From a bacterium (GTDB lineage Bacteria > UBA8248), in assembly GCA_965221165.1 (NCBI GenBank), contig CBDCRP010000003.1:1824001-1888000 (forward strand): a stretch of 64,000 nucleotides of DNA. Direction: 5' to 3'. Of the stretch, positions 22,348 to 60,094 are shown one piece after another. The notes beneath the pieces were generated by a model. The model was not told the origin of the DNA, did not search any database, and worked only from the letters and a program-made list of their open reading frames with translations. The position numbers and the translations under genes were made by a program. Each line of letters opens with the position of its first letter. Within the stretch, counting starts at the first letter, position 1.

Positions 22348-22385
22348 AAAAGCCGGTGGGCCGCCCCACCGGCTTTTTGTTTTTC
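22348..22385. terminator. Bidirectional intrinsic terminator
   Basis: AAAAGCCGGTGGG-ccgc-CCCACCGGCTTTTTGTTTTT between convergent genes. Confidence 0.85.
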
Positions 22386-22909
22386 TACTGCTGCGCCTGG
22401 GCCGCCATCCGTTTTTTTCTGAACTGAACGGCCTGGATGACATCCTGCCAGACGAGACGACCCAGCGGGCCCGAACTGTAGAGCGAGATGTTCACCTTGC
22501 CGTCGGGTGAGAGCAGAAAGTTGGTGGCGTGAAGAAACGGTCTCGGCTTCTCGCCCGCCTCGGGGGCGTAGAAAGCGCCCGTCATCTCGGATATATAGGC
22601 GGGGTCCACGCTGTGCCCCACCGGAAAGTTCACCTTGCTCGCCTCGATGGACTGCACCGCCTCACTTTCCGGATCGGTGGACGCCGCGACGACCTTGATG
22701 CCTTCGGTTTCGAGCCTTTCTCCCGCCCGGGAGAATCCCGCCATCTGGGCGAGGCAGTAGGGTCACCAATGGCTGCGGTAGAACAGGACAACGCCCCACG
22801 AACCCCGCAAATCATCGGGCAGGGCGATTTTTCCGCCACCCACCTTGGAGATACGCAACCTCGGGAAATCATCCCCGGTATCCAGGAAGAACCGGTTCAC
22901 TTTCGGCAT
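22385..22909 (-). CDS. Peroxiredoxin-like (AhpC/TSA, thioredoxin fold) selenoprotein, UPYC; TGA at 22763-22765
   Basis: MPKVNRFFLDTGDDFP...WGVVLFYRSHW-TGA-PYCLAQMAGF... in frame with ORF 22385..22744. Confidence 0.85.
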
Positions 22910-23017
22910 GATGCGCTCCACTCTTGTTCAAGAAATAATCGAGTCCGTTTCATGTACTCGGGATGTTACCGCTCCGGCGGAACGATGAAAACCGGCCTGC
23001 TGAATCTGCGCACAAAA

Positions 23018-23054
23018 TAACACTCCCTCAATGTCGGCCATCGAGGGAGTGTTA
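23018..23054 (-). terminator. Hairpin/terminator between the two Prx-like genes
   Basis: TAACACTCCCTC...GAGGGAGTGTTA followed by TTTT on the minus strand. Confidence 0.65.
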
Positions 23055-23068
23055 TAAAAGGTTCGCTA

Positions 23069-23569
23069 CTAGTTCTGGGCCGCCATCATCTTCTTATAAA
23101 ACTGAACCAGACCCAGGACGTCCTGCCACACGAGCCGGCCGATGGGCCCGCTGCTGTAGACGGCCACGGCGACCGTTCCATCGGGCTTTAAGACATAGCC
23201 CGTGCTGTGAATGATCTGGCGTTTTTCCTCATAAAAACAACCGGTGAGCTCTGAAATCTGCTTGTTGTCAAGGCTATAGCCCACAGGGAAGTTGATTCCG
23301 CATTCATCCATCGTTCCCTTGGCTTGCTCCTCCGTGTCCACGGAGGCGGCAACAACTTTAACACCCTCTTCCTTGAGCTTCGCAGCCCTATCGAAGGCCG
23401 TAAGTTGCTGCTTGCAATAGGGTCACCAGTGACCTCGATACAGCAGAACCACCCCCCAGTCGCCCGCGAGATCGCCCGGAAGGGAGATTTTACCTCCCCC
23501 TACCTGGTCCACCTCGATGCCCGGGAAGGCATCTCCCGAATCGATCATCTTGTCCGTCATACGTGGCAT
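23069..23569 (-). CDS. Peroxiredoxin-like (AhpC/TSA) selenoprotein, UPYC; TGA at 23423-23425
   Basis: MPRMTDKMIDSGDAFP...WGVVLLYRGHW-TGA-PYCKQQLTAF...VAASVDTEEQ joins ORFs 23423..23605 and 23069..23341 in frame. Confidence 0.85.
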
Positions 23570-23802
23570 CAACGCGCCCTCCGAAAATGAATGAAGCAAA
23601 AACAAGCCTAAAATAATAAGCCCCGAACGCGATCATTTATACCCGCGCAATAGGGATATTTCAAACCGAATCGAATCTCTCTTACAACATCGCATCGATA
23701 ATTCCTACGATTTCTCCTCCCATGGTCTTGACACCGAGAGGCTTGGTTTTTAGCATAGGCCTACTTTTTCTGAAGGCTCGCAATGAGCGCAGGAGACTCT
23801 CA

Positions 23803-24081
23803 ATGAGCAATGCAATTGCTTGTGAATGCAAGAAAATAAAGCTCGAAGGTGAATACGAAAAAGCGGCCGGCGCCTGCAACCGGGAGATTCATCTATCCGA
23901 TGAGGATGCGGAGCGCTACCTCCCCCGCGATGAATCCCAGCAAAACCAGATCATCTCCAAAGAATGCCAGATTCCACCTCTCACCAGCGTCATCCGGTAT
24001 GGCGAGGGTTATTATGTCCTCAAAAAAGGCCGGGTCATGCGGGAGGGGTTCAGCAGGACGATCCCTGAATATAAGCAGTAA
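23803..24081 (+). CDS. Hypothetical small protein
   Basis: RBS AGGAGA + ATG 23803, MSNAIACECKK..., 92 aa with 4 Cys. Confidence 0.55.
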   Translation: MSNAIACECKKIKLEGEYEKAAGACNREIHLSDEDAERYLPRDESQQNQIISKECQIPPLTSVIRYGEGYYVLKKGRVMREGFSRTIPEYKQ

Positions 24082-24288
24082 ACGCGCCGGCGGGTTTCGC
24101 CGCCGCGCAAACGCTCAGCAGAACATTCCCGGATGCGAGCCAAGCGCGTCTTCGAATTGGCATGTCCATTTGCGTGAAACGCACACTCCTTCCATCAGCA
24201 CCATCCCTTGGCTCCTGGCTGTTTTTTGATGCTAGAATGAGACTCTTTGAATTTATTCCCGAAACACCCGACGCTGAGGAGATGGACC

Positions 24289-24651
24289 ATGCGCGCCAAG
24301 AGATATAATTGGAATGAAATGCCCGAGGAAGCCGTGACCGATACTTTTTCGAGAAAAATGGTGGTGGGCGAAAAAGAAATGCTTTGCTGGCTCAAACTTA
24401 AACCCGGCTGCCTGGTACCCATGCACAGCCACGAGAACGAGCAGATATCCCACGTCATCAAGGGAAGACTCCGGTTCTTCATCGATGATGAATCCGTGGA
24501 AATAGGCCCCGGGGAAACGCTCCTCATCCCGCCGAACGTGCCCCACGCCGTGGAAGTCGTGGGCGATGAAACGGCGATAGATTACGACATCTTCAGCCCT
24601 ATCCGCGAAGACTGGCTCGATGGGAGCGATAATTACTTAAGAGACGAATAG
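24289..24651 (+). CDS. Cupin domain protein
   Basis: PMHSHENEQ, IPPNVPH, DIFSPIREDWL. Confidence 0.88.
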   Translation: MRAKRYNWNEMPEEAVTDTFSRKMVVGEKEMLCWLKLKPGCLVPMHSHENEQISHVIKGRLRFFIDDESVEIGPGETLLIPPNVPHAVEVVGDETAIDYDIFSPIREDWLDGSDNYLRDE

Positions 24652-24812
24652 CGGAGAATCCCTGCCCGGCATCGCGGGTGCAGAAAAAGCATCCAGAACA
24701 CGGGGGTGTTTCGTTTTGCCCTTCTTTGGATGCGCCTTGGCAGTAGACTTGATGATTCAATCACCAGAGCCACCAGCCACTAACCGTATTCCCTTCTCAT
24801 ATTCAAGATATT

Positions 24813-25006
24813 GTATCCACAATTCAGCCTTACACAACATATAGATTCCCTGTAACCAATTGCTTTTTATGTGGTAGTTCGCTTTTCCCCATCTGAATAA
24901 CCTGTGGGTAAGGTTCTATATTTACCGCTATATATTGTGCAGGAATAAAAAAATCCACTACATTTTGTGGAAAATTGTTGACATATGGAAAAATTCGACC
25001 TACATT
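24813..25006 (+). promoter_or_regulatory. Sigma70 promoter with clustered DnaA-box-like and NrdR-box-like motifs
   Basis: TTGACA(24978)-17 bp-TACATT(25001); DnaA-like at 24813, 24883, 24892, 24903, 24966; NrdR-like 16-mers at 24832, 24925, 24955. Confidence 0.6.
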
Positions 25007-25008
25007 AA

Positions 25009-25190
25009 GGGAGAAGAGTAGCATCAAATAGACATATCACCATCCGTTTAAGCAGGCGCATCCGCCCATCGTTTCCGCTTGAAGAGTGATTTGACCGAAT
25101 AAGTTTGTTGAAGCCTCTTCGAATCGTGAACGACAAATGACCTTTCCGGGCATCGCCTGCCCTTTCCTTCCAGAAGATGCCTCTATCCCA
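25009..25190 (+). ncRNA. Candidate 6S-like rod-shaped ncRNA
   Basis: Nested pairings GGGA/TCCC, AGAG/CTCT, GCATC/GATGC, then a central bubble, then GCAGGCG/CGCCTGC, GCCC/GGGC, TCGTT/AACGA, GAAGAG/CTCTTC; about 180 nt, no ORF. Confidence 0.5.
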
Positions 25191-25277
25191 CCCAGGGGCC
25201 CCCACGGGGCCCCAAAATTATGAAAAGCCAGGGTGCGAGTCCTTACGCCAGACGCTTTTCATAAACCACGCACCACG

Positions 25278-25313
25278 AAAAAAGCCCCCTCGCCGGGAGG
25301 GGGCTTTCCTTTT
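25278..25313. terminator. Intrinsic terminator downstream of hflC (possibly bidirectional)
   Basis: AAAAAAGCCCCCTC-gccgg-GAGGGGGCTTT. Confidence 0.8.
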
Positions 25314-25325
25314 CCGGAACCGGAT

Positions 25326-26246
25326 TTATTCCGTTTTTTTCGCGGCTTTGTCTTTCAAGTCCCTGTTCTTTGATCCTTGCAGGAATCTGAGGAAATCGCT
25401 GCCCGCGGGCAGCAGGAGCGTCGTCTTGTCTTTCAAAGAACTCCGGTACACCTCCAGGCTTTTCAGGAAAGCGTAGAATTCCTCATCCTCCCCGAACGCC
25501 TTGGCGTTGATGTCGATGCTCTTGGCGTCGCCCTCGCCCTTGGTGATTTGCTCTTTCTCATAGGCTTCCGCCAGGAGCACGTCGCGCTCGCGGTTGGTTT
25601 CCGCCCGAATCTTCTGGGCCTGCTCTTTTCCTTCCGAGCGGTACTGGCGGGCGATTCTCTGCCGCTCGGCCTGCATGCGCCCATAAATCGCCTTTAAGTT
25701 CTCCGTGGGCAAATCGGCGCGCTTCAAGCGCACGTCCACTATCTCGATGCCGTATTCGCGCGCTTTCTTGTCGCTCTCCCTGGTGACTTTGGCCATCAAC
25801 TGCGCGCGGTCTTTCGCCACGATGTCGATCAAATCCTTGCGGCCGAGTTCCAGGCGCAATTCACTGTAGATGATGTCGTCGAGCCGGGCTTGCGCCCCGG
25901 TTTCGTTGCGGACCGTGCGCAGAAACTGGAGCGGGTCGATGATGCGCCAGCGCGAGAAGTTATCCACCACGAGGGATTTCTTGTCTTGGGTGATGATCTC
26001 CGTGGGGTTGGAGTCATACTCCAGCAGGCGGCGGTCGAAAAACGTGAGCTGCTCCACGAATGGAATCCGGTAGTTGAGCCCCGCGTCACGCAAAACGCGG
26101 ACGGGCTTACCGAACCGGGTGACGACCACTTGCCTGTCTTCACGAACCGTAAATAAAAATGAATTGAGAGCAAAGACAAAAACAAGGACCAAGACGAACA
26201 ACGCGATTGTCTTTTTGGGCAATTTTATGGCTCCCTCGGCGCTCAT
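25326..26246 (-). CDS. hflC: FtsH protease modulator HflC
   Basis: SPFH domain, TQDKKSLVVD, RMQAER, FYAFLKSLEVY. Confidence 0.93.
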   Translation of the reverse strand: MSAEGAIKLPKKTIALFVLVLVFVFALNSFLFTVREDRQVVVTRFGKPVRVLRDAGLNYRIPFVEQLTFFDRRLLEYDSNPTEIITQDKKSLVVDNFSRWRIIDPLQFLRTVRNETGAQARLDDIIYSELRLELGRKDLIDIVAKDRAQLMAKVTRESDKKAREYGIEIVDVRLKRADLPTENLKAIYGRMQAERQRIARQYRSEGKEQAQKIRAETNRERDVLLAEAYEKEQITKGEGDAKSIDINAKAFGEDEEFYAFLKSLEVYRSSLKDKTTLLLPAGSDFLRFLQGSKNRDLKDKAAKKTE

Positions 26247-27289
26247 CGTTTCGTTATCCCTTCTATTCCACCTCCCCGCAGCGGGAGTATCGGCAGCACG
26301 CCGGATTTACCCTGATCCAGGATCACTTTGTCCACCGTCGGCATCACCTCCTGCATCATTTCGAGATACAGGCGCTCGCGCGTAATGGCCGGCGCTTTTT
26401 TGTATTCCTTGAGCGTGGCGAGGAAGCGGTTCGCATCTCCGCGCGCATGGCGAATCTTGGTCTCGCGGTAGGCTTCCGCTTTTCTGAGGACGGCGGCCAC
26501 CTTGCCGCGCGTCTCCGGTATCACCTGGTTTTGATAGCCTTGCGCCTCATTCACGAGGCGGTTCCTGTCCTCACGGGCGCTGGCCACGTCCTTGAAGGCG
26601 TGAATGACATCCTTGGGCGGCGTCACGTCCTGAAGCTGCACCGCCGCCACGCGCAAACCGGTTTCGTAGCGATCCAGTATCTTTTGCATCTCCACCATCG
26701 TCTCTTGCTGGATCGCGCCCTTTCCGGTGGTGAGCGCCTCGTCGATGGGCTTGCTGCCCACGACTTGCCGGATGGCGGCTTCGGCGGCGTGCACCACCGT
26801 CTCTCTGGGATTGCGAACCTTGAAGAGATACTTGTCCGCCTCCACGATGCGGTACTGCACGATCATGTCGACGTCGACCATGTTTTCATCCCCGGTCAGC
26901 ATTCTCGACTCATGGGGCTTGTCCGAATACCTCGCGGGAGGACCCGGATCAATGGTGCGGAAACCGATTTCCACGCGCTTCACTTCCGTCACCTTCGGCG
27001 TATAGGCGGTCTCCATCGGGTAGGGCATATGATAGTTCAAGCCCGAGGACACCACCCGGTCGATGCGGCCGAACCGAAGAACGATGCCCTGCTCGTCCGG
27101 CCCCACGCTGAAAATACCCGAGGCCAGCCATATCAGAGCCACCACCACGAATATGGCCGCGGAGGGAAGCTTGAAATTCGGCAAACGAAACTGCGGCAGC
27201 TTGATCTGCGGCATGCCGCCGCCTCCACCGCCACCTCCACTACCACCACCTTGTCTTCTCGATTTGAACTCATCCCAATCCATCGGCAT
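26243..27289 (-). CDS. hflK: FtsH protease modulator HflK
   Basis: Gly-rich N-terminus, MLTGDEN, AFKDVASARED, TRERLYLE. Confidence 0.93.
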   Translation of the reverse strand: MPMDWDEFKSRRQGGGSGGGGGGGGMPQIKLPQFRLPNFKLPSAAIFVVVALIWLASGIFSVGPDEQGIVLRFGRIDRVVSSGLNYHMPYPMETAYTPKVTEVKRVEIGFRTIDPGPPARYSDKPHESRMLTGDENMVDVDMIVQYRIVEADKYLFKVRNPRETVVHAAEAAIRQVVGSKPIDEALTTGKGAIQQETMVEMQKILDRYETGLRVAAVQLQDVTPPKDVIHAFKDVASAREDRNRLVNEAQGYQNQVIPETRGKVAAVLRKAEAYRETKIRHARGDANRFLATLKEYKKAPAITRERLYLEMMQEVMPTVDKVILDQGKSGVLPILPLRGGGIEGITKR

Positions 27290-27399
27290 GAGTGTTTCTC
27301 CTATGAGCGACGCATCATTACTTTAAGAGGCGACATGGGAAAGAAATTTCGACCACCCAACAACTATCACGTTTACCCTAAGCGGGTTATGGATTGAAG

Positions 27400-28377
27400 T
27401 CAACCAACCCGAATCTGTTTTTGACGCACTTGCCTTTGGTTTTTCATGATTTGACGGCGCGAAGGCGAACCTTCTTGCGCGCCATGTCTTCTCACGGAAC
27501 ACGATCCTGCGCTGACGGCGAAGCGCACCGCATCCTCGAGCGCCGCGCCTTCTGCGAATCTGGCCGCCAACGCTCCGCAAAAAGCATCGCCCGCACCCGT
27601 CGTATCCACCACCTCGATACCGGCGGGAGGCCTGAGCCAGGAGGCTTTGTTTGCATCCAGGAGAAAAGCACCCTTTTCCCCCGCAGTGATGACGACCCGC
27701 GAAGGCCCCAACGCCCGCAAGGCGCGCGCCGCACCCAGGAACTCCTTATCGGTTTCGGGTGTTTTTTCGAGTTCGGTCAGATGCGCCGCTTCCGTTTCGT
27801 TCGGCGCCAGCACATCGGTCAAACGGAGCAATTCCCGGGGCAACTCCCCCGCCGCCGGTGCCGGATTCAGGATGTTGCAAGCCCCGCGCTTTCTCCCTTT
27901 TCGGAATGCTTCCGTAATCGATGAAACCGGAACCTCGAGCTGCGCCAGAACGACATCACCAAAATCCAAAAGCCCCAGCTTTCTTCTGATTCGGCCGGGA
28001 GTCAGGAACGCATTCGCGCCGGGGGCCACGGCGATTTGGTTTTCCCCTCCTCTTTCCACCACTATCAGTGCCGTTCCCGTGCTCGACTTGCAGCGCAAGA
28101 TGCCATCCGATGATATCCCGCTCTCCACCAGGTAATAGCGATAGGCATCGCCGTCTGAGTCACCACCCAGCATGGTGACGAAACGGACCTCTGTACCGGC
28201 GCGCAAGGCAGCCAGGGCTTGATTCGCCCCTTTTCCGCCCCAATACTCCTGCCGATCTTCTCCCAGGACAGTTTCACCGGGGGAGGGAAGTCTATCCACT
28301 CGAACAACGATGTCGATATTCGAGCTTCCCAACACCAAAACGGTGGCTTTTTTATTCTTCATCGTCGTCCCATCCAC
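27400..28377 (-). CDS. rbsK: Ribokinase (PfkB family)
   Basis: GSSNID, GGKGANQA, NPAPA, PNETEA, DTTGAGDAF. Confidence 0.88.
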   Translation of the reverse strand: MDGTTMKNKKATVLVLGSSNIDIVVRVDRLPSPGETVLGEDRQEYWGGKGANQALAALRAGTEVRFVTMLGGDSDGDAYRYYLVESGISSDGILRCKSSTGTALIVVERGGENQIAVAPGANAFLTPGRIRRKLGLLDFGDVVLAQLEVPVSSITEAFRKGRKRGACNILNPAPAAGELPRELLRLTDVLAPNETEAAHLTELEKTPETDKEFLGAARALRALGPSRVVITAGEKGAFLLDANKASWLRPPAGIEVVDTTGAGDAFCGALAARFAEGAALEDAVRFAVSAGSCSVRRHGAQEGSPSRRQIMKNQRQVRQKQIRVG

Positions 28378-29380
28378 GATATTTGCGCAGATGCGAGATG
28401 AAAAACGCCAAAAAACCCCTTACATCCAGGTCCAGAGCCACTTCGACCGGGTTTTTGACCCGTATTCCCTTGTTTTCCCTCAAATCCACCAACGTCATCC
28501 CCCGAGCAAGGCCCTTGCTCGTGTCCACATCCACGTGACACCGCCTAGTCTCCACCAAATCCGGCTTTATCGCGACGGCGAGAGCCAGGGGATCGTGCAG
28601 GGTGATGTCATCCACACCTCTTCGTTTTTTGGAGAATCGCGCGTATACCTTTATGATATCTCGAAACGCCGCCCGAAACGGGCCTCCTCCTCCAAATTCA
28701 TCGACGCCAAGGAGCGCGCGCCTCGTAACGTCAAGCCCCACCATGGTGATGGGCAGTCCCGATGAGAACACATCGGCCGCCGCCTGGGGGTCGCAATAGA
28801 TGTTGAACTCAGCCGCCGGCGTCACGTTCCCGGGCATCCGGGCGGCTCCTCCCATCACCACAATCCGCCTCACACGCGACAAGACCTTGGGCGCGCACCT
28901 GAGCGCCAGGGCCAGATTCGTCAGTGGCCCCAGGGTGATGATCGTCAAATCCGAACCCTGTTCTGCGGCCTGCTCGATGATCACGTCGCAGGCCGATTTC
29001 GAACTGCCGCCACCCAGGCGGCGCAAGCGTCCTTTTTTCTGGAACATCACACCCAGGCCTTCCGCCCCGTGAATCATGCGCGATTCGCTTCGGTTTAAGC
29101 GGCTTCCATCCAAGGCCAGTGAGGCCCCCCGGTAAACGGGAACTTCCGGGATGGGAGACGGGAGATGATCCCGCAGAAATGCGGTGAGTCTTCTCGCATT
29201 CCGGTAGGCCAAACGTGCGGAAACATTGCCATGCACGGTCGTCACGGTGATGTACTGAAAAAACGAGGATGCGAAACCCATCGCCAAAGCCAGCGCGTCG
29301 TCCACACCTGGGTCGCAATCCACCAAGGCGTATCGAACAACTGATTCCCTGTTATTTTTCACCATCGAATCACGCCTCAC
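28352..29380 (-). CDS. Nucleoside hydrolase (IUNH family)
   Basis: DCDPGVDD, GPLTNLA, AEFNIYCDP, HDP. Confidence 0.92.
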   Translation of the reverse strand: MRRDSMVKNNRESVVRYALVDCDPGVDDALALAMGFASSFFQYITVTTVHGNVSARLAYRNARRLTAFLRDHLPSPIPEVPVYRGASLALDGSRLNRSESRMIHGAEGLGVMFQKKGRLRRLGGGSSKSACDVIIEQAAEQGSDLTIITLGPLTNLALALRCAPKVLSRVRRIVVMGGAARMPGNVTPAAEFNIYCDPQAAADVFSSGLPITMVGLDVTRRALLGVDEFGGGGPFRAAFRDIIKVYARFSKKRRGVDDITLHDPLALAVAIKPDLVETRRCHVDVDTSKGLARGMTLVDLRENKGIRVKNPVEVALDLDVRGFLAFFISHLRKYRGWDDDEE

Positions 29381-29786
29381 TCTCGCTTAAGAAAATATAC
29401 ATCATATCGTATGAACACTCAGGTTAATCCATAAAAATTGTTGCCCTTCATCGAATGATATCACCTGTTTCATCCTTCAGCACTTGATTATTGGAGGAAA
29501 ATCCGGGGAGTCGATTCTACAACTATAAATATATCAACAGGTTAATCTAAATATTTCATTTAGTTTTATTATTTTTATTATTGTCCTTTGCCCTACACAA
29601 TCAATTAACTGGTTAAAATTCAACGTCTTAAAGCGTTTCCATATGACCAAGAATTGACAAAGCATGTATTTTCATATACTTATGTCTAGCTTTTAGAATT
29701 TGCGTTCCATAGAATGATCCTAAAATTACATGATGACTCATTAATCTTTCTTATCTCCTCTTCAAGAGGCTTGCCACAACTTAGAA

Positions 29787-31886: not shown

Positions 31887-31899
31887 GAGACATTCAAAC

Positions 31900-33561: not shown

Positions 33562-33569
33562 TTTGCCTG

Positions 33570-34574: not shown

Positions 34575-34620
34575 GCCGCCTCGCGAAAACCGCCTGAGCC
34601 CACCTCGCGCCATTTCGGCT

Positions 34621-40298: not shown

Positions 40299-40414
40299 TT
40301 CCGGCAACGACCCACTCTCCCACGGAAAGGACCGCAGTACCATAGGCGCTGGTGGGCTTAACTGCCGTGTTCGGGATGGGAACGGGTGTGGCCCCGCCGC
40401 TATAGCCACCGGAA
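40299..40414 (-). rRNA. rrf: 5S rRNA
   Basis: CACACCCGTTCCCATCCCGAACACGG, TGGGAGAGT conserved motifs. Confidence 0.95.
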
Positions 40415-40516
40415 ATTCTCTGAAAATTCCGACAATCAAATCGCGTGGTTGGCGTCATTAAGTTCTTGCTGCTACCCGGCTGAAAACCGATGAAAGATTC
40501 GACGATAATTTCAATC

Positions 40517-43512
<2,996 letters not shown>

Positions 43513-43666
43513 AATCTTGAGATTTCGGATTCTCAGCCAATACTGAGAGCCTTAATGATTATGCCAATTCACGCGATTCGATTGTCAAAGAGCAAAAGGC
43601 GGAAGAAACTCCCGCCCAAATTGCTGAAGAATTGAAATTCGCCGCTACGGGCGCCGCCGGATCGGA

Positions 43667-43742
43667 TGGTGGAGATGAGCGGGCTCGAACCGCCGACCTC
43701 CTGGTTGCAAACCAGGCGCTCTCCCGACTGAGCTACATCCCC
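43667..43742 (-). tRNA. tRNA-Ala(TGC)
   Basis: GGGGATGTAGCTCAG...TTTGCAA...TCTCCACCA in ITS. Confidence 0.95.
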
Positions 43743-43867
43743 ATACTGAAATCCGTTTCAGGGACCGGCCCGCGACGATGAGCCTGCGCGGTTCCACTCA
43801 ACGGTTCATCCACGCCGTCACTTCCCGGCGCCTCATGCTATGCGTTTCATCCCCATCCATTCTGGTA

Positions 43868-43944
43868 TGGTGGGCCTACCTGGATTTGAACCAGGGACCT
43901 CGCGCTTATCAGGCGCGCGCTCTGACCAACTGAGCTATAGGCCC
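43868..43944 (-). tRNA. tRNA-Ile(GAT)
   Basis: GGGCCTATAGCTCAG...CTGATAA...GGCCCACCA in ITS. Confidence 0.95.
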
Positions 43945-44265
43945 GCGACCTCGCCCGCGCGGCCTGAAAATCAGGTGCTCGCGCCGAGCTTCACCCAGGC
44001 ATTCAGCCGAAATTCACAAATCCTTGAATTCGGAATAATCCGCATACCCGCTGTGGCGTTATTCTTAAGAACAGGATATGGACGGCCCGAGACGGGCCAT
44101 CGACCTTGAAGCGCCGATTCGTCTTGCAATCATCCTGCGATACGCCAAAGGCGTAAGGCGGCGTCGCACGATCCTCAGGCAAGAAAGCGACCCGCGTCAT
44201 CGGATGACGACAACGGCCTCTCGCTATCTCCCCTCCCGTGCTTTTTGAAAACGAATCATTCAGCA

Positions 44266-45822
<1,557 letters not shown>

Positions 45823-45945
45823 TGATATTTCTGATCCAAAGAGAAAAACACCAAACCGGTTTCCCGGCAGGCTTCCCATCCCTTTGGGTTCAATCGGGAA
45901 TTGTACTACTAGAGCCCGTTCAGGTCCGTCACATATCCTATTCTT

Positions 45946-48084: not shown

Positions 48085-48180
48085 ATCCCGACCTCCGCCG
48101 CGCCCTGTACGCGGAAAATTACCCGCGACCCCTACAGTGAAGCCAAAGGACAACGAATTCGCGCGATTCGGAATCTTCGA

Positions 48181-49008: not shown

Positions 49009-49325
49009 CCAAACCCCTCCGCCCGGCTCCTCCTCGAGCCGTCCCGCGTTGGCGGCCGGGTTGGGTTGGAAAAATTGTGTATACAATGATTTGCGGTGAT
49101 CCGCAAAGCGCCGGGCGGACTTCGGCGCGCATCTCCGGGGTCCGACCAAGGACTCCGCCTCCTCGTCAGGGACGGAAATTTCGCGGCGCCCTTCAAAAAG
49201 GGGGTCTTTTGCGCCAGAATGCGGACCGTTCTCTTTCCCCGGTGGAAAAGAAAAGGATTTTCATCGAACGCGCACGCATCCGGCGCGAATCATCAAGACA
49301 CGGCGCGCTTTCGAGAAGGGCTCTC

Positions 49326-49703: not shown

Positions 49704-49707
49704 GCTC

Positions 49708-50460: not shown

Positions 50461-50622
50461 TACGAGGGGGCACTCTCTTCATTCGCACAATAACAATTTC
50501 ACCTGTATTCCCACGGATCAAAAAACGCCCGCCGAGTGGCGGGCGCTCTCATGTTTCCCCCAAACCCCGCAGGAGATATGTGTTTTCCGGATCAGTAGCC
50601 TCGTATGCGACACCCCCCCGGC

Positions 50623-52029
<1,407 letters not shown>

Positions 52030-52399
52030 GCGTCCGCTCCCATTTTGTTGAAATCCGGTTGAAATTCGCTTTGTTCTCGAAATGTTCGCTTTGGTGATGA
52101 GGTGAACCGCCTTCAAGAACATCAAGGGGGCATGACGCGCCAGACCGTCATCAGGTCGAGACGGAATTTGAGTCGGCATACGCCCCTCTAGGCTGGGCCG
52201 TGACTAGCGTACAGATGTGGCATTAGAGCATGGGGAGGGCGGCGATTCAAGAAAAAACTTTACCCGCTTCTTCCATCGCCGAGGCCTACTCACGCCATGC
52301 AGTTCTTCGGGATTCGAGTTTCACGGGTCATTTTCAGAAGTGGCGCAAGAGAAAGAAAAGGCCTGGCCCGCTCAGAGTTCTCGCAAGGCTCCTTGAAAC

Positions 52400-52999
52400 C
52401 TATGCAGACGGATTCGGCAGCGGCAAGAGGGCTTCGGCCTGGGAAACAATGGATTGCGGCTGACTCTGATCGGAGGACACGCGCGCCAGCACCCTGAGGC
52501 CGAGGAACAGGCCGAGCAGGGATTTCGCCGTCTGGTCCGGAACAACTTCCGGGCAGATTTCCCCACAGGCTTGGCCCCGCTCGATCGAAGCGCGAAGGAA
52601 GTCCTCCATGCCGGCGAATGCGTTGCCCACGAACGAGACCACCTCCGCATCGTGCAGCCCCAGTTCCAGGGCCGTGTTAACTTCGAGGCAGCCGTCGTGC
52701 GCACCGTTCTCTCCCGCGTCTGAGGCGGCGGCCTCAAACATGGACAGCACCGCTTCGCGCGGTGAGGGATGCTTTTCAAGCTCCGCAATCGGGTCTTCCC
52801 GGTAGATGCGGTCGTAATGACGCAGCACCTGAGCGAACATCTGACGCTTGTCACCGAACGCGTGGTAGAGGCTCCCGCGCAACAGGCCCGTGGCCTCCTC
52901 AAGATCACGGATCGAAGTCGCCGAGTATCCATGGCGCCAGAACCGGAACATCGCCTTCGTCAGTACTTCGTTCAATGCGACCTTTCGCAATTTTCCCAT
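52400..52999 (-). CDS. TetR/AcrR (NemR/ComR-like) transcriptional regulator
   Basis: FWRHGYSATSIRDLEEATGL.RGSLYHAFGDK, GCL.VN. Confidence 0.9.
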   Translation of the reverse strand: MGKLRKVALNEVLTKAMFRFWRHGYSATSIRDLEEATGLLRGSLYHAFGDKRQMFAQVLRHYDRIYREDPIAELEKHPSPREAVLSMFEAAASDAGENGAHDGCLEVNTALELGLHDAEVVSFVGNAFAGMEDFLRASIERGQACGEICPEVVPDQTAKSLLGLFLGLRVLARVSSDQSQPQSIVSQAEALLPLPNPSA

Positions 53000-53486
53000 A
53001 CTGTTCTCTCCTCGTGTTTTCTGCCGAGCCGCAAATTCCATGCTATGCCATTCCACAGATGCAGATCAAATCCTCGGAGCGCAGGGAGAATCCTGCACGG
53101 CCCGGGAGAGGGCAAGTTCCAGATGGGCGCAGCCTGCGAGTCGGGTTGCGGGGGTGAACTCGAAAGTTTCTTGATGGGCGCAGTCGCTTCAACGAGCGTC
53201 TCCCGGCCTGAGGCGTGCCGGACCACCAACGAGGCGAGTTGACGCTCATCACGGAGGAAAAAGCTCCACTGATGCAAAATGGAAACGGGTATAACGCCCT
53301 TCGGCGCACGCGGAGATGAGATCGTCCACGGTCTCACGCTGCGCGGCATCATGCGCCGGCAGGCTTCTCCCCCGCTACTCAGAACGAATACTTCATCACC
53401 AGGCCCAATCCCAAGGAACGGACGTTATCCATCTCGACGTCGTATAGAACCGGAGTGCCGCCGGGCGCGGTGAACGAGGAAAGAAT

Positions 53487-53520
53487 AAAAAAGCGCCCGC
53501 CGGACGGCGGGCGCTTTCAC
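53487..53520 (-). terminator. Intrinsic terminator after the AhpD-like pair
   Basis: AAAAAAGCGCCCGCCG-gac-GGCGGGCGCTTT. Confidence 0.8.
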
Positions 53521-53534
53521 GTCAATGGCGAAAC

Positions 53535-54140
53535 TCAGGCGGGCAGGGGCACGTCTTTCCCGTAAATTTTCTCGGACTGCGCCTGCGTCACGACGTTTCC
53601 CTCCGGATCGTGTATGGGATAGGCCTTGAGCGTGCGCATGAAGACCTGGAGACCATAGTGAAGCGCCACCATCGCGCCGAGTTCCATGATCTGGGCTTCC
53701 GAGAAGTGTTTTTTGCCCTCGTCGTAGAATTCCTTGTCCAGCTTTTTGGCGTCTCGGTACATCCAGTAGGAATAGCGAAGCGCCCATTTCTCGGCGTCTG
53801 AGAACTGCGGGTCGTTCTCGAAATCCCCGCAGGCGGCCTCGATGCGCTTCTCCGTCAGGCCCTCTTTTTTCGCCTGCTCGGAGCGCAGGTTCGCGAAGTA
53901 GGTGTCCTGTGCGGTTCGGGCGAGCTGGATGCGGACCATCTCCTTGAGCTTGTGGTCCACCCCGCCCATGGCGTGGGAGCGGTGCATGGCGTCGTGCATG
54001 GCGGCGGCGTAGCCGGGCGCATGCGCCATGATGCGCGAGAACAACGCATCGGGCGCCTGGGTTTCGGCGGTGCGCTCCATGACGCGCATCCAGTTCTTAT
54101 CGTCAATCGCTTCGGGTTCGAGCGGCTCGATAATCGGCAT
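53535..54140 (-). CDS. AhpD/CMD-like protein lacking the redox motif
   Basis: VDHKLKEMVRIQLARTAQDTYFANLRS, FSDAEKWAL, HFSEAQIMELG. Confidence 0.8.
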   Translation of the reverse strand: MPIIEPLEPEAIDDKNWMRVMERTAETQAPDALFSRIMAHAPGYAAAMHDAMHRSHAMGGVDHKLKEMVRIQLARTAQDTYFANLRSEQAKKEGLTEKRIEAACGDFENDPQFSDAEKWALRYSYWMYRDAKKLDKEFYDEGKKHFSEAQIMELGAMVALHYGLQVFMRTLKAYPIHDPEGNVVTQAQSEKIYGKDVPLPA

Positions 54141-54149
54141 GTCTTCCTC

Positions 54150-54812
54150 CTAGCTTCCGTTGGCTTGCTGCGCTTCACCCTCTTCGAGAGCGCGGGCGAG
54201 CGGGCCGCTCAGGTGCGAGACGGGGCAATCCCCATAGATGCGGCGCGATTCCTCCTGGCTCACCAGCCGGCCGTCGGGGGAGAACATGGGGTAGAAATCG
54301 AGCGTTCTGAAAAAAGTGTGGTAGCCCACGTTGAAGCCGATGAAAGAGCCTAATTCCACGATTTCCTCATCCGAATAGTGGTCTCTGAGCCTCGCGTAGA
54401 AGGCCTCGTCAATCTTCTCGGGTTCTGAATCCATGAGCTCGCTGTATTCGAGAGCGAGTTTTTCGGCTTCGGTGAAATTATCGCTGTCGCTCCAGTTGTC
54501 GATGCCGTCGTCTATCAGCTCCTCGGTAAGGCCCGCCTGCTTCGCCGAAGCAGAACGCACGTTCCCTCAGTAGTTGCAAAAAGCGCGGCGCGAGAGTTGA
54601 ACGCGGATGATCTCCTTGAGCTTGTGGTCGATGACGCCGGTGTTGAACACCGTGCCCCAGGCGAGGTACATCGATTTCGCCAAGTCCTCGTTGTGGCCCT
54701 GCATGGCGTGAAAGGCCGGGTCGGGCGCGCGGTGCTTGAGCGCCTTGTTGACGAAAGGAGCCAGCTTCGTCTTCTTCAGGTCCCCGATGTCGAGCATGGT
54801 GATATTGGACAT
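54150..54812 (-). CDS. AhpD/CMD-like selenoprotein, CxxU; TGA at 54567-54569
   Basis: IDHKLKEIIRVQLSRRAFCNY-TGA-GNVRSASAKQAGLTEE joins ORFs 54567..54812 and 54150..54560 in frame; hairpin at 54537-54553. Confidence 0.85.
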
Positions 54813-54861
54813 ATAAGAATCTCCCTAAAATGAAGTGCGAGATAAATTTTCGTTTATCGAC

Positions 54862-56229
54862 TCAAGCGCCGCTCTCCGCCTGAACGCGGCGCAAGGCGGA
54901 GTCGAGGGCGGACGCTGCGCGCTCGGCCTCTTCTTCGGTAAAGACCAGCGGCGGGCTGATGGTGACGGTGTTCGAGGGACCCGCCGCGATGCCGGAGTTC
55001 TTGCCGAAAATAACGCCCGCCTCCTTGGCGTAGGCCAATACCCTGGAGGTGGCCGCCGTGGACAAGGGCGCGCCGCTCTCTTCTATCAACTCCACACCCC
55101 AGATGAGGCCCACGCCTCTAATGTCGCCCACGCAGGGGATGTCGGCGAGTTTCCCCAAAAGTCCGCCCAGGTAGGCGCCCACCTTCGCGCCGCGCGCGGG
55201 CAACTCCTCGTCCATCATGATTTCGAGATTCTTGAGCGAGGCCGCGCAAGCGGCGGGGTGCCCGCCGTAGGTGTTTATCTGCAGGAATCCCGAATCGCCC
55301 TCCGCGTTTAAAGCCTCGAATATTTCGTTCGTGGTCGCAGTCGCCCCGATGGGCAGGTAGGCGCTGCTCAGCCCCTTGGCCATCGTCATGATGTCCGGCT
55401 CGACCTCATAGAGATCGGAAGCAAATAGCTCCCCCGTGCGCCCGAATCCGGTGATGACCTCATCTGCGATGAACAACACGCCGTGGTTCCGGCACACCTC
55501 GCGCATGCGTTTCAGGTAATCCGCGGGCGGGGGAATCACCCCGCCGCCGCCGATGACGGGCTCCGCGATAAACGCCGCCACGGTCTCGGGGTCTTCGTAG
55601 CGGATGACCTCGTCGAGTTCGTCCACGCACCGCTGCGCCAATTCTTCTTCGGAGCCTGCGTTGCTGCGGTAGAAATAGGGGGCGCTCACGTGAATCACGC
55701 CCGGAAGGAGCGGTTCGAACATCGCGCGCCTGAGCGTCTGGCCGGTGAGGCTCGCGCCGCCGATGGTCGCCCCGTGATAACCCTGGTGGCGGGCGATGAT
55801 TTTATACCGCCTCCCGCCGTTCAGACGTCCATAGACGCGGGCCAGCTTGATGGCGGTGTCCACGGCTTCCGAGCCCGAGTTCACGAACCAGACGCGCTCG
55901 ACCCCCTCTGGCAGCAGGGAAGCGAGCCGCTTGGCGAGCCTGGCTGCCGGCGGGTTCACCTGCGTCAGCGGATAGTAGGCCAGTTCGAGCATCTGCTCGT
56001 ACGCCGCCCGGGCGACCTCGTCGCGCCCGTAGCCGATGTTCACGCACCAAAGCCCCGCCATGGCGTCGATGTATTCCTTACCGGAGGCGTCCTGGATGGT
56101 CGAGCCTTTGGCTTTGACCACGACGTCGAGGGGATTTTCCTCGATTCCGGAATGGTTCATGAGCGGATGCCAGACGTGCTCCTTGTCCATCGTCCGCAGG
56201 GATTCGGCTTCGGCTATGGCTGGGTTCAT
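54862..56229 (-). CDS. Class III PLP-dependent aminotransferase (omega-transaminase-like)
   Basis: DAMAGLWCVNIG, SGSEA, YHGAT, FIADEVITGFGRTG, MAKGLSS. Confidence 0.92.
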   Translation of the reverse strand: MNPAIAEAESLRTMDKEHVWHPLMNHSGIEENPLDVVVKAKGSTIQDASGKEYIDAMAGLWCVNIGYGRDEVARAAYEQMLELAYYPLTQVNPPAARLAKRLASLLPEGVERVWFVNSGSEAVDTAIKLARVYGRLNGGRRYKIIARHQGYHGATIGGASLTGQTLRRAMFEPLLPGVIHVSAPYFYRSNAGSEEELAQRCVDELDEVIRYEDPETVAAFIAEPVIGGGGVIPPPADYLKRMREVCRNHGVLFIADEVITGFGRTGELFASDLYEVEPDIMTMAKGLSSAYLPIGATATTNEIFEALNAEGDSGFLQINTYGGHPAACAASLKNLEIMMDEELPARGAKVGAYLGGLLGKLADIPCVGDIRGVGLIWGVELIEESGAPLSTAATSRVLAYAKEAGVIFGKNSGIAAGPSNTVTISPPLVFTEEEAERAASALDSALRRVQAESGA

Positions 56230-56323
56230 TGGGGTCCCCTCTCGGGTTTCAACGGTTCGGTATTCTATCGATCGATGCGAAAATCTTAATGCGCAAACGG
56301 GTGCGGATCAACCGCCAGGAGAG

Positions 56324-57316
56324 CTAGCCCGGCGTATACTCGGGGCTTTCACTTTTGATTCGAAAGGCCTGGCGCCCGATACGCTGGATTTCGCCCTCTA
56401 TCAGGTCGCCCGGCTCCAGGTATTTCCCCCAAGAAGCGGCGTTGCCCGCAGGCGAGCCGGTGCCGATGATATCGCCCGTCCGCAGCGTGGCGATCCCGGA
56501 TAGATAGGATACCTGCTCGGCGACCCGCCAGACCATATCGCCCGTGGTGGCGTCTTGCCTGAGTTCTCCGTTCACCCAGAGCCTGAGCCTCAAATCGTGG
56601 GGATCCAGCCCTTCTTCGGGGAGCAGGATATAGGGGCCGATGGGAGCGAAGCCGTCCGGGGCCTTCATGGCGTACCAGTCGATGAACTTGCCCATGTTCA
56701 GGCTCGTGCGATCGCTCATGTCGTTGAACAGGGTGTAGCCGCCCACATGGTCCATGGCCCGTTCCACGGGAATGTTCTTGCCTCCCTGGCCGATGAGCAC
56801 GCCGAGTTCGAGTTCGTAGTCGAGCTTTTCCATCGAGGGATAGACGGGCACGTCCTCATTCGGGCCGCTCACGCATGTTGCGGGCTTCAAGAAACAATAG
56901 AGCGGGAGTTCCTCCTTGAAGTCATTCACCTCGATTCGCGCCATCTCGGCGGCATGGGCCACATAGTTCCTCGCCATACAAAACAGCGTGTCCGGAATGA
57001 CGGGAGGAAGAATCTCGACTTCTTCTGGTTCATAGACCACCTGCATCCCGTCGAAGCGAATCGGGTTTTTCCTGCGCCGGTGCTTCTTGAGGGCTTCGGT
57101 AGCTTCTTCCGCCAGGGGGCGGTTCATCTCCAGATCCTCGATGAATTCCTCACAATCCGCGGGCACTTCGGCTTCCGCCTGATCCATGGCCTCGGCCGCC
57201 GACTCATCATTCAGTGACAAGGCGTAGGCCATCTTGAGGTCGGCGATTTTCTCCCCGAACAAGACTCCTGTGCGCGCCTCGCCCCCCAGACTGAAAGTAC
57301 AGATTCTCATGACCAT
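56324..57316 (-). CDS. Fumarylacetoacetate hydrolase family protein
   Basis: RNYVAHAAE, FLKP, DYELELG, NDMSDR, APIGP, GTGSPAG. Confidence 0.9.
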   Translation of the reverse strand: MVMRICTFSLGGEARTGVLFGEKIADLKMAYALSLNDESAAEAMDQAEAEVPADCEEFIEDLEMNRPLAEEATEALKKHRRRKNPIRFDGMQVVYEPEEVEILPPVIPDTLFCMARNYVAHAAEMARIEVNDFKEELPLYCFLKPATCVSGPNEDVPVYPSMEKLDYELELGVLIGQGGKNIPVERAMDHVGGYTLFNDMSDRTSLNMGKFIDWYAMKAPDGFAPIGPYILLPEEGLDPHDLRLRLWVNGELRQDATTGDMVWRVAEQVSYLSGIATLRTGDIIGTGSPAGNAASWGKYLEPGDLIEGEIQRIGRQAFRIKSESPEYTPG

Positions 57317-57453
57317 GAGCCTCCGTATCTTAAATGCGCGATAAAGGGGAATCCTAGCACAGGGACGCAGGCGATGGCGCATTGCTCCTGAAAGCGGGAG
57401 CCTGTCGGGAGAACAAATAGCATGAAATTTCAAGACTCCCGCTTCAAATGCTT

Positions 57454-58269
57454 TTATTCCGCTCTTCGGTGTTTGGAGAGAAAATCAAGAATCAGGCGAC
57501 GCGCGGTATCGTCCCGCGAGAGGTTGTGCTTCCGGCCCTCGAACAGATGGAATTCCATCTTCACGCCCCGCTTTCGGGTCTTGCGCAGACATTGATCGGC
57601 GGGCCTGTTCCGCCGCCAGGGGTCGTCCTCCGAGTACAGCGCGAGCACGGGCGTCCCGCGTGGCGAGCGAACGCCGCGCCAGCATACGGAGCCTGCGATG
57701 ACGTGGGCGGCAAACTCATCCCCCTCATAGGCGGCGACCGCGGTGCCGCCCTGGCTATGTCCCACCAGGAACAGGTTTTTCCGGTCCACCCAAGGGATGC
57801 GCCGAACCCGATAAGCCGCGTGATGAATTTCCTCTTGCCGCATCCGGTTCACCCGCCTGTGAGGCGCTCCTTTTATGCCCCGGTGCCGGGAGGGATTGCA
57901 GGTCTCGGGCCGATAGCGGCGGGCGAAGCTGTCGGGAGCGATTACGGCGTATCCCGCCCGCGCGAGCACTCGCATGTAGCGCAAATTCCCGCGACCAAGC
58001 CCCGCGCAGCCGTGCGCGAAAACGACGGTGGCGCGTTTTTTCTTGAGTCCCGCAAGTTTTCCCTGAACGAATTTATCGCTCATCCTGCCTTCGATGAACG
58101 CATCGCCTATCCGAATCATGAAATAGGCGGAATCGAAGGTGCGTCTTGCTTCATCGTACAAATCGAGGGTTTTGGGGTTCAGTCTTTCGAGCGCTTCAGC
58201 GCCGAAGTGTCCATTTCCCCCAAAAAGAAGAAAACAAACCATCGCCAGGATGAAACCAGAATGCCGCAT
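57454..58269 (-). CDS. Secreted dienelactone hydrolase-like alpha/beta hydrolase
   Basis: Signal-like N-terminus, HGCAG, PDSFAR, GHSQG, D and H triad residues. Confidence 0.7.
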   Translation of the reverse strand: MRHSGFILAMVCFLLFGGNGHFGAEALERLNPKTLDLYDEARRTFDSAYFMIRIGDAFIEGRMSDKFVQGKLAGLKKKRATVVFAHGCAGLGRGNLRYMRVLARAGYAVIAPDSFARRYRPETCNPSRHRGIKGAPHRRVNRMRQEEIHHAAYRVRRIPWVDRKNLFLVGHSQGGTAVAAYEGDEFAAHVIAGSVCWRGVRSPRGTPVLALYSEDDPWRRNRPADQCLRKTRKRGVKMEFHLFEGRKHNLSRDDTARRLILDFLSKHRRAE

Positions 58270-58306
58270 TGCTGAAAAACCGCAGACTTCGCTCACTATG
58301 AACCCC

Positions 58307-59539
58307 CTAGACGACGCCCTCATCTTCGAGTTCCTTTAGCTCCGCATCCGACACTCCGAGCAGACCGCCGAGGATTTCCCCGTTGTGCTGGCCCACGAGC
58401 GGTGCGGGGGAGGCGTAGCCGCCTTTGATTTCACTGAACTTGAGAGGAAAACCCGGCGCCTTCGCGCTGGTGAGCGCTCCGAGCGTGGGGTGTTCGATAT
58501 CGACTATCATCCCGCGCTCTTGCATGTGGGGCCAGGAGAGGATGTCGTCGATATTGTTCACCGGCCCGCAGATGACGTCGTGCGCGCGCAGGGAGGAGAC
58601 CGCCTCTTTCGTCTCACGCCGCTTCGTCCAGTCGGTGATGAGGCCGTCGACCTCCTGGTGTTTGCTCACGCGCCGGCTCATGTCCTCGTATCGCTCATCG
58701 TTGATGAGTTCGGCACGCTCGATGCCGCGCAATATGTTGTGCCAGTGCGCGTTGGTTCCCGAGGCGATGATGACCCAGCCGTCTTTCGTCTCATAGGCGT
58801 TGAAGGGAGCGAGCCGCATGATGCGGTTGCCGATACGGGGTGGAAGCCCGAGCCGTTCGTAGCAATCCATCGGCTCATCGAAGATTAAGGAAAAGATGCA
58901 GTCGATCATCGAAATGTCGACCTGCTGGCCCTTGCCCGTCCGCTCGCGGTGAAAGAGCGCCGTCATGATGGCGCCGAAGGCGAACGTGCCGCCCACGCTG
59001 TCACCCAGGGCGGAACCCGCCTTGGTGGGCGGGCCGTCGGGAAATCCCGTCAGGTTCATCAGACCAGACGCAGCCTGGGAAACGGCGTCGTAGCCCTTGA
59101 GCCCCGCATCCGGCCCCGTCTGCCCGTAGCCCGTGATGGAGCAGTAGACCAGGGAAGGCTTGCGTGTATGAAGCGTCTCGTAGTCGATCTTGAGCCTTTT
59201 GGTGACGCCGACGGAGAAATTCTCCACTAGGATATCGGAGCGATCGACGAGTCCATAGAACATCTCGAGACCCCGGGGGTCCTTGATGTTGAGGGTAATC
59301 GCTTTTTTCGCGCGCGTGCGCTTCAGGTAGGCCATCCCTATGTCCTCATCCGTCTGGGGATGATAGGAGACGCCTTTTGCGCCGATATAGGGAGGGGAGT
59401 AGGCCACCGGATCGCCCGTGGCCGGATTATCGATGCGGATGACCTCGGCCCCCAGACCCGCCAGGAAAAGCGTGGCTTGGGGACCCGAGAGAAACTGTGT
59501 GAGATCCAGGACGCGAATGCCTTCGAGTGGCTTTGTCAT
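58307..59539 (-). CDS. CaiB/BaiF class III CoA-transferase
   Basis: PLEGIRVLDLTQFLSGP, ENF, SITGYGQTGP, GYD, APLVGQHN. Confidence 0.93.
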   Translation of the reverse strand: MTKPLEGIRVLDLTQFLSGPQATLFLAGLGAEVIRIDNPATGDPVAYSPPYIGAKGVSYHPQTDEDIGMAYLKRTRAKKAITLNIKDPRGLEMFYGLVDRSDILVENFSVGVTKRLKIDYETLHTRKPSLVYCSITGYGQTGPDAGLKGYDAVSQAASGLMNLTGFPDGPPTKAGSALGDSVGGTFAFGAIMTALFHRERTGKGQQVDISMIDCIFSLIFDEPMDCYERLGLPPRIGNRIMRLAPFNAYETKDGWVIIASGTNAHWHNILRGIERAELINDERYEDMSRRVSKHQEVDGLITDWTKRRETKEAVSSLRAHDVICGPVNNIDDILSWPHMQERGMIVDIEHPTLGALTSAKAPGFPLKFSEIKGGYASPAPLVGQHNGEILGGLLGVSDAELKELEDEGVV

Positions 59540-59551
59540 GAATAAACGGAA

Positions 59552-60094
59552 CTACCCGCCGAGGAGAACCTTCACCGCCTGGAGAGCAGCATCGCTCGCG
59601 CGCGCGGAGATTTCATCATCCGAAAGCGTGCTCAGGGGGTGTTGAATGACCACGGGGTCCAAGCCGTCCATGCCCAAGGCCGCCCTTTGCACGTGGGCCT
59701 CATGCAGAAAAACCTCCGTCACCACCACGGCGGTGGGCACGCCCTTTTGCTCCAGGGAGATCGCATCGTGCATACAGCACGAAGTGCAGGAGCCTCAGTC
59801 GCCAATCGCCGTCAGGACGACGTCGTTCTCCTCTGCGATTTGCGTGATCAGCTCGGGCGCCGCGTTCTTGGAAAAACTCTCTTTCTTATAGTAGTGCACT
59901 TCGGAAAAGGGGCCTTCCGCCTCCATCAGCGCCGTGGTCTTCTCGAGCAGCCTGCGCCCGTTCCACTTGGTGTTGTCCAGTATCCCGAGCTTTAAGCCCT
60001 TCAAATTCGGGACGCGCTGCGCGGTGGGTTGCGCCTCGGCCTCGACCACCCCACGGGGGTCGTAGACGATCTGGCCGGTGATGACGTCGCTCAT
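59552..60094 (-). CDS. UGSC-family selenoprotein; TGA at 59795-59797
   Basis: LDNTKWN...VVLTAIGD-TGA-GSCTSCCMHDAISLEQKGVPTA joins ORFs 59795..60094 and 59552..59773 in frame; hairpin at 59763-59787. Confidence 0.85.

Follow-up and report, generated by a model that had tools for sequence, protein, structure and literature searches.

In a 64,000-nucleotide stretch of a UBA8248 genome (hereafter the window; C3:1824001-1888000 in a 3.69-Mb, three-contig assembly), four genes on the minus strand are each interrupted by a single in-frame TGA, which raises the question of whether these codons end the genes or are read as selenocysteine (Sec, U). The genes encode two Prx-like thioredoxin-fold proteins (PrxA and PrxB), an AhpD/CMD-like protein and a protein with a UGSC motif. 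Judging from the sequence evidence set out below, the four TGAs are very probably Sec codons, and the four genes belong with about 57 candidate selenoprotein genes counted across the genome.

Four interrupted genes and the Sec machinery

When TGA is read as U, four unbroken minus-strand open reading frames (ORFs) are obtained in the window. PrxA, with an AhpC-TSA thioredoxin fold, lies at 22385..22909 (minus strand, 174 amino acids (aa)) and carries its TGA at 22765-22763 in the motif RSHW-U-PYC, and its paralog PrxB, which is about 54% identical, lies at 23069..23569 (minus strand, 166 aa) with the TGA at 23425-23423 in RGHW-U-PYC. The AhpD/CMD-like gene, of the COG2128/YciW type, is found at 54150..54812 (minus strand, 220 aa) with the TGA at 54569-54567 in FCNY-U-GNVRSA, and the UGSC gene at 59552..60094 (minus strand, 180 aa) with the TGA at 59797-59795 in IGD-U-GSCTSC. 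A first-pass annotation of the window had proposed four genes with one in-frame TGA each at the position of a redox Cys, and all four read-through ORFs were confirmed, down to the coordinates it gave, which are exactly the last base of each TGA. Its further claim that the two halves of each gene form one domain also holds, where a single Pfam domain bridges the TGA in 4/4 genes: AhpC-TSA at residues 12-139 of PrxA (61.6 bits, cut-off 26) and at residues 12-134 of PrxB (68.7 bits, cut-off 26), CMD (PF02627) at residues 49-122 of the AhpD-like protein (27.6 bits, cut-off 23), and PF24696 at residues 10-178 of the UGSC protein (197.1 bits, cut-off 25). The latter also scores 159.8 bits against the NCBIfam model NF041046, 'UGSC family (seleno)protein' (cut-off 125). 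The TGA positions are beyond chance, because each TGA stands two residues from a Cys in a redox motif that is already known, and orthologs retain it.

In such a system, SelD would make selenophosphate, SelA would convert Ser-tRNA-Sec to Sec-tRNA-Sec, and SelB would deliver Sec-tRNA-Sec at a UGA that is followed by an in-gene Sec insertion sequence (SECIS) hairpin. It had been noted that the window holds no selA, selB, selC or selD, which is correct, and these genes sit elsewhere in the genome, where selA, selB, selD and tRNA-Sec are all present and the proteins score over their curated cut-offs. The selA (507 bits) and selB (383.8 bits, covering 1-580 of 581 model positions) genes are adjacent on C3 and precede the window by about 240 kb, and selD (329.8 bits), whose own gene holds one TGA, is on contig C2, as is the single copy of tRNA-Sec (anticodon tca), which was found with ARAGORN. 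TGA has not been reassigned in this genome: it is the commonest stop and terminates 1258/2839 open frames of at least 300 codons, and among the tRNAs listed, tRNA-Sec alone has an anticodon (tca) that reads it. Hairpins just past the UGA with a G in the apical loop were found, with the firmest case in the AhpD-like gene, followed by the conservation seen in the UGSC gene and PrxA, and a weakly supported candidate in PrxB.

Conservation of the probable Sec position in three protein families

The assignment of the four genes to the UxxC Prx/thioredoxin-like, CxxU AhpD-like and UGSC types, as made in the first-pass annotation, is supported by their domains, by the machinery described above and by the Cys or TGA of their homologs. 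Orthologs of PrxB have a single TGA and were matched over their full length, once per genome, in 37/44 genomes of the order, down to 59% identity, and PrxA orthologs in the order have one or two TGAs. In many of them the second TGA replaces the codon of Cys52 to give U-P-Y-U, which is a direct Cys/Sec exchange; HW-U-PY-U occurs in the PrxA ortholog loci L033, L034, L040, L231-L236 and L240, and the window genome has U-P-Y-C. In the U-P-Y-U relatives, two UGA codons that lie 9 nucleotides (nt) from each other would depend on a single hairpin downstream. The full-length database homologs of PrxB have WCPYC in 8/10 and HWWPYC in 2/10, where the W matches what a gene-calling table that renders TGA as Trp would give. 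In the solved protein ResA (3c71), WCPHC aligns onto HW-U-PYC, with U on the first Cys of the ResA CxxC, and the expected alignment of Cys to U in homologs was found in these WCPYC proteins and in solved ResA and CMD proteins.

The PrxA candidate SECIS hairpin, UUCUCCC-GGGC-GGGAGAA (22719..22736, minus strand), has its apical loop 34 nt past the UGA, and its letters are unchanged, synonymous sites included, in 20/24 orthologs. Of the other four orthologs (L237, L238, L239 and L241), L237 and L241 keep a hairpin made from different letters (UUCGC-GCGG-GCGAA in L237), in pairings read by eye. For PrxB, a weaker candidate, CUUCG-(9 nt)-CGAAG, lies at 23378..23396 (minus strand), and hairpins with GG-containing loops can be drawn in its orthologs. 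PrxA and PrxB would be thioredoxin-fold thiol:disulfide oxidoreductases of the 'Prx-like UxxC' type, where Sec would replace the attacking N-terminal Cys of a ResA/TlpA-type CxxC and Cys52 would resolve the selenenylsulfide. An assignment to the typical peroxiredoxins (AhpC, BCP, PrxU) was rejected, as both proteins are far under the equivalog cut-offs and their nearest solved relatives have ResA-type CxxC sites. Against the peroxiredoxin equivalogs of NCBIfam all scores were 17-40 bits with cut-offs of 140-456, and the best of these models gave 34-40 bits vs cut-offs of at least 211.

The AhpD-like orthologs have one TGA in 39/44 genomes of the order. When the search was extended across phyla, with one genome per species, 80 loci of 68-95% identity were obtained, whose record titles name Nitrospinota, Acidimicrobiia, Alpha-, Beta- and Gammaproteobacteria, Tectomicrobia, SAR324, Anaerolineales and Chthoniobacterales, and the TGA stands in C-x-Y-U-GNVRS(A/T) in 80/80. 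The solved CMD proteins 7xw1 and 2ijc have CAYC aligned to CNYU. The protein is not a member of NCBIfam TIGR01926 (35.5 bits, cut-off 81.8), NF053654, NF041047 or NF041238, and by these scores it is placed as a related subgroup outside the named NCBIfam models. Sec would occupy the second position of the AhpD/CMD CxxC site, which is the place of the nucleophilic Cys in mycobacterial AhpD.

The SECIS hairpin of this gene, UCUGCUUC-GGC-GAAGCAGG (54536..54554, minus strand), starts 13 nt past the UGA and was compared in 69 sequences. Among distinct sequences, the pair 18-32 is U-A 37 times, C-G 23 times and U-G three times, and is never unpaired; 95.4% of cells pair, vs 31-63% when the partner is slid. 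Invariant third codon positions make up 4/6 of those inside the hairpin and 0/15 of those outside (Fisher P = 0.0025). On this comparative evidence, one pair of the hairpin has compensatory changes, and synonymous sites within it are frozen.

Directly downstream of the AhpD-like gene is a CMD paralog without Cys or Sec (53535..54140, minus strand), which has D-T-Y-F vs its partner's C-N-Y-U. This Cys-less sister adjoins the AhpD-like gene in 79/80 of the cross-phylum loci, in several phyla, and the sole exception stops at a contig end. Other neighbours are not conserved, the aminotransferase being found in 27/80 and FAH in 19/80. The simplest reading of the pair may be a heteromer of active and inactive CMD subunits, in which the AhpD-like protein probably works with the sister encoded alongside it.

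The UGSC query has matches in 43/44 genomes of the order, with exactly one TGA in each among the matches listed, which take in orthologs with as little as 67% identity and paralogs with as little as about 32%. For this family, the conservation of the TGA was tested here, and the Cys forms were taken from Table 2 of an earlier survey (PMC2398784), as given in the available part of that source. Downstream of the TGA lies a candidate SECIS hairpin, UCGUGC-UGUAU-GCACGA (59766..59782, minus strand), whose letters are identical in 20/20 orthologs of 69-99% protein identity, and the flanking third codon positions vary. The UGSC gene starts 27 nt downstream of a 364-aa partner gene with the motif GFSDGLP (60121..61215, minus strand), which matched no Pfam family and has 13 paralogs in the genome. 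A partner gene is directly beside the UGSC gene in 6/7 cases, and at the seventh UGSC gene the distance to one is about 3 kb. Four partner paralogs stand in a tandem array (C3:2030825-2034933) that is about 3 kb from a UGSC gene, and four further partner paralogs have no adjacent UGSC gene.

Residues 95-179 of the UGSC protein align to the C-terminal Sec region of the genome's own GrdB, with U on U (BLASTP E = 0.002; hhalign probability 86.7%, E = 4e-6). The UGSC protein has neither the GRDB domain (PF07355) nor a match to the TIGR01918 profile, and PF24696 is its only Pfam match. At most it may work like GrdB/PrdB without being a member of that family, as the alignments show likeness in the C-terminal Sec region only. 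An AlphaFold2 (AF2) model built with 18 sequences (pLDDT 87.3, pTM 0.83) predicts a five-strand alpha/beta domain with U100 in a loop ahead of the helix 104-116, and this model does not show the thioredoxin-like fold guessed for the family in 2008 (PMC2398784). A search of the UGSC profile against the sequences of solved structures gave nothing credible, the best match being an ArsA ATPase (E = 0.038). In the proposed mechanism, Sec would stand where a helix begins, within a flavodoxin-like alpha/beta domain resembling the C-terminal Sec part of selenoprotein B, and the UGSC protein and its adjacent 364-aa partner would probably act as a two-part reductase.

The genome-wide set and the alternatives

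To place the four genes in the selenoproteome, every in-frame TGA in the genome was screened for flanks that both score as coding, and 209 read-through ORFs were kept on the strength of a Cys close by, a paralog with U or Cys aligned to the U, or high-scoring flanks. A family domain runs across U in 25/105 and 30/104 of these, or 55/209, five of them shown by NCBIfam, and with a seventh UGSC gene and selD the count comes to about 57 candidate selenoprotein genes. The 'unusually large selenoproteome' proposed in the first-pass annotation is supported by this screen. The largest group is AhpD/CMD-like (14 genes, one CMD gene of which looks truncated), followed by UGSC (7), AhpC-TSA/Redoxin (7, including three deiodinase-like), DsbA-like (6), OsmC-like (5), GrdB/PrdB-like (4) and rhodanese (3). 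GrdA, glutaredoxin-like proteins and a DUF442/TIGR01244 phosphatase-fold family have two genes each, and thioredoxin, SelW-like, DsrE-like, DUF3179 and SelD have one each. That gene callers miss such genes, as had also been proposed, is supported by four public records of PrxB homologs, which are 91-104 aa long and begin just past the TGA. As these four genes and about 50 more are split or truncated in public protein sets, the redox capacity of the lineage is under-counted.

The two DUF442/TIGR01244 'sulfur transferase' genes (C3:689732-690184, minus strand, at L191:17540-17992; and C3:1702777-1703235, plus strand, at L219:698-1156) have the TGA at the catalytic Cys, in the motif V-H-U-K-G-x-G-R-A. 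BLH_phosphatase matches across the TGA, and the NCBIfam scores are under cut-off. One of the two starts 13 nt after an OsmC-like selenoprotein gene. In each of two grd-type clusters (C3:1442167-1446746 and C3:1621555-1625133), selenoprotein genes for both GrdA and GrdB are present. A heme-copper oxidase subunit I (504 bits) is encoded in the genome as well, so that the organism can probably respire oxygen.

Several observations weigh against Sec insertion at the four TGAs or against the size of the set. The evidence for Sec insertion is sequence-based throughout, and the minimum free energy of the 63 nt from each TGA is unremarkable vs shuffles (z = -0.58, -0.99, +0.11 and -1.11); single-sequence folding is uninformative here, so that comparative alignments carry the case for the SECIS hairpins. 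In PrxB, the hairpin letters drift among orthologs and RNAalifold picked other pairs. The AhpD-like protein is under every NCBIfam cut-off touched, with NF053654 (YciW-related (seleno)protein) as the best at 68.1 vs 310. Foldseek with the UGSC model returned generic flavodoxin-like folds only (best TM 0.46), with no GrdB or PrdB structure among the matches, so that this fold search neither supports nor tests the UGSC-GrdB link. The count of about 57 rests on an ad hoc filter rather than a validated pipeline, and selD and one UGSC gene were missed by it. Of the 209 screened ORFs, 154 were rejected, mostly as adjacent genes in frame, natural stops or ORFs with no family match. Two of the three rhodanese genes counted are 95% identical copies on C2 and C3, and the assembly (96.3% complete) is rated 8.47% contaminated.

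Among the alternatives, the one that survives best, although it is improbable, is that the TGAs are rarely recoded, so that truncated N-terminal fragments dominate and the full selenoproteins are minor or selenium-conditional products. Sec insertion is known to compete with termination, but purifying selection has preserved the motifs, the hairpins and the halves past the TGA across great evolutionary distances, and such selection is explained only if the full-length protein is the selected product, which disfavours rare recoding.

Another alternative is that nonsense mutations or errors of assembly produced the TGAs, with the four genes being pseudogenes. Gene callers do split the four genes, and likely pseudogene copies exist in the first ~110 kb of C2 and C3, which are diverged copies of the same genes with 70-100% protein identity, where several copies are broken by a TGA at which the other copy has R, G or W. 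These copies may stem from mixed strains, from one large duplication or from an artefact of assembly. One enoyl-CoA hydratase (C2:1289981-1290706, minus strand; L168:8165-8890) with an in-frame TGA at a non-catalytic F-C-A-G may be a further pseudogene case, where a nonsense mutation or an error is a likelier cause of the TGA than Sec decoding. At the four genes of the window, by contrast, the same TGA recurs in the orthologs of between 37 and 43 genomes of the order, which were assembled independently, and in 80/80 cross-phylum loci, the coding signal is kept on both flanks, and the TGA is always on the redox Cys. Contigs of the runs X1 and X2 also match 59709-60200 exactly, although these runs probably derive from the source sample and hence give no independent confirmation. 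On the conservation of the TGA across these alignments, the reading as pseudogenes or errors is refuted in practice, with hardly any probability left to it.

A code in which TGA stands for a standard amino acid, namely Trp or Gly (NCBI tables 4 and 25), to which the W printed at the U position in two database homologs might point, has next to no probability in a genome where TGA is the commonest stop and is matched by tRNA-Sec alone among the tRNAs listed, where most TGA read-throughs join adjacent genes rather than one domain, as in the rejected ORFs above, and where homologs have Cys at U, not Trp or Gly. Decoding as Sec in full-length proteins is therefore the preferred reading of the four TGAs.

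Some further candidates were discarded during the genome-wide work. A relaxed screen with 3025 candidates was dropped, as it was swamped by antisense frames and by the diverged duplicates in the first 110 kb of C2 and C3. Seven tandem 70-aa TGA 'repeats' (C3:818509-820021, minus strand), which resemble a multi-Sec protein, are the antisense of a plus-strand gene (C3:817572-819880, in L195). Its product is a coiled-coil protein, 586 aa or more in length, with repeats of roughly 70 aa, and the antisense frame of the gene mimics a multi-TGA ORF. Several other U-U clusters were rejected as antisense to genes of the UGSC-partner family.

With about 57 genes in 3.69 Mb, the expected density is one per 64 kb, and the four in the window are more than this (Poisson P(>=4) = 0.018), with two of the four, PrxA and PrxB, being a tandem duplicate. 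Between the Prx pair and the AhpD-like and UGSC genes lies a complete rRNA operon (40299-45824, minus strand), which consists of 16S rRNA (44274-45824), 23S rRNA (40515-43511) and 5S rRNA (40299-40413), all on the minus strand, together with tRNA-Ile and tRNA-Ala.

Comparison with known selenoproteins

As given in the available parts of the sources, a study of the Sargasso Sea described AhpD-like CxxU, CMD-domain CxxU and Prx-like UxxC selenoproteins and also lists DsbA-like, OsmC-like, DsrE-like, rhodanese and deiodinase-like selenoproteins (Zhang, Fomenko and Gladyshev 2005; PMC1088965). The Global Ocean Sampling (GOS) study added the UGSC-containing protein, which is among the most abundant selenoproteins in that ocean metagenome survey (its Table 2 counts 255 Sec and 21 Cys forms), and reports UxxU forms in a Prx-like family (Zhang and Gladyshev 2008; PMC2398784). 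A 2026 review lists a 'Prx-like thiol:disulfide oxidoreductase, PF00578, UxxC, UxxU, 1~2' (1-2 Sec) and a 'UGSC-containing protein, NF041046', and puts the largest bacterial selenoproteomes at 57 and 63 genes (PMC13188914). The terms 'phosphatase', 'TIGR01244' and 'PF04273' do not occur in the available text of that review. In BSepDB, the top ten holds three metagenome-assembled genomes (MAGs) of Nitrospinota/UBA8248 with 54, 50 and 48 selenoprotein genes (2026; PMC13326102, Table 2, as far as available), and one such MAG, FO_M_Nitrospinota_01, supplied locus L121, where the AhpD ortholog is 84% identical. The about 57 genes counted here come from a different method and are not directly comparable with the counts in BSepDB.

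The four genes are ordinary members of families that have been catalogued since 2005-2008, in a lineage already listed as Sec-rich, and the finding raises no new question. It adds one well-assembled genome (three contigs) to an exceptionally Sec-rich lineage, and the presence of both conserved gene pairs within one window makes it a handy source of constructs for biochemistry. A broader proposal can be offered only tentatively, namely that the set of about 57 is level with the second-largest bacterial selenoproteome in BSepDB and was built by paralog expansion (AhpD-like, UGSC, Prx/Trx-fold, DsbA-like and OsmC-like), including the two DUF442 Sec forms with the motif H-U-x-x-G-x-x-R, in a probable oxygen respirer. 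If this is true, the lineage would run a selenium-based thiol/peroxide redox network in an oxic habitat, which would contradict the stated rule that Sec-rich bacteria are anaerobes. The UGSC protein with its partner and the AhpD-Sec protein with its Cys-less sister would then be testable two-subunit selenoenzymes encoded by obligate gene pairs.

Set against known systems, PrxA and PrxB are like the Prx-like thiol:disulfide oxidoreductase selenoprotein (PF00578) in having an AhpC-TSA domain with UxxC here and UxxU in relatives, and like the solved ResA/TlpA-type CxxC proteins (3c71, 4nmu) in having a CxxC-type site with U on the first Cys of ResA; they are unlike typical peroxiredoxins, and here they form a tandem pair. 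The AhpD-like protein resembles the AhpD-like 1 (COG2128/YciW) and CMD-domain CxxU selenoproteins described in the available parts of PMC1088965 and PMC2398784, where CxxU falls on the AhpD/CMD CxxC site, and it shares with them a CMD match over the Pfam cut-off and a SECIS hairpin with an apical-loop G. It differs from the models of those families as a 220-aa subgroup under the TIGR01926 and NF053654 cut-offs, with Sec in all of its loci across phyla and the sister gene in all but one, and the pairing with a Cys-less sister is not described in the available text of either source.

The UGSC protein is like the 'UGSC-containing protein' of PMC2398784, as described in the available part of that source, in its U-G-S-C motif and in scores over both curated cut-offs (PF24696 and NF041046), and there is no family-level difference, with seven copies in the window genome. 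The link to GrdB is not drawn in the available text of PMC2398784 or PMC13188914. Unlike selenoprotein B (GrdB/PrdB; PF07355, TIGR01918), the UGSC protein is without the roughly 340-residue GRDB domain, no pyruvoyl-forming partner of the GrdE/PrdA kind was seen for it, and the likeness, at the hhalign probability given above, is modest; the Sec regions of the two nevertheless align U on U, and both are encoded beside a larger partner.

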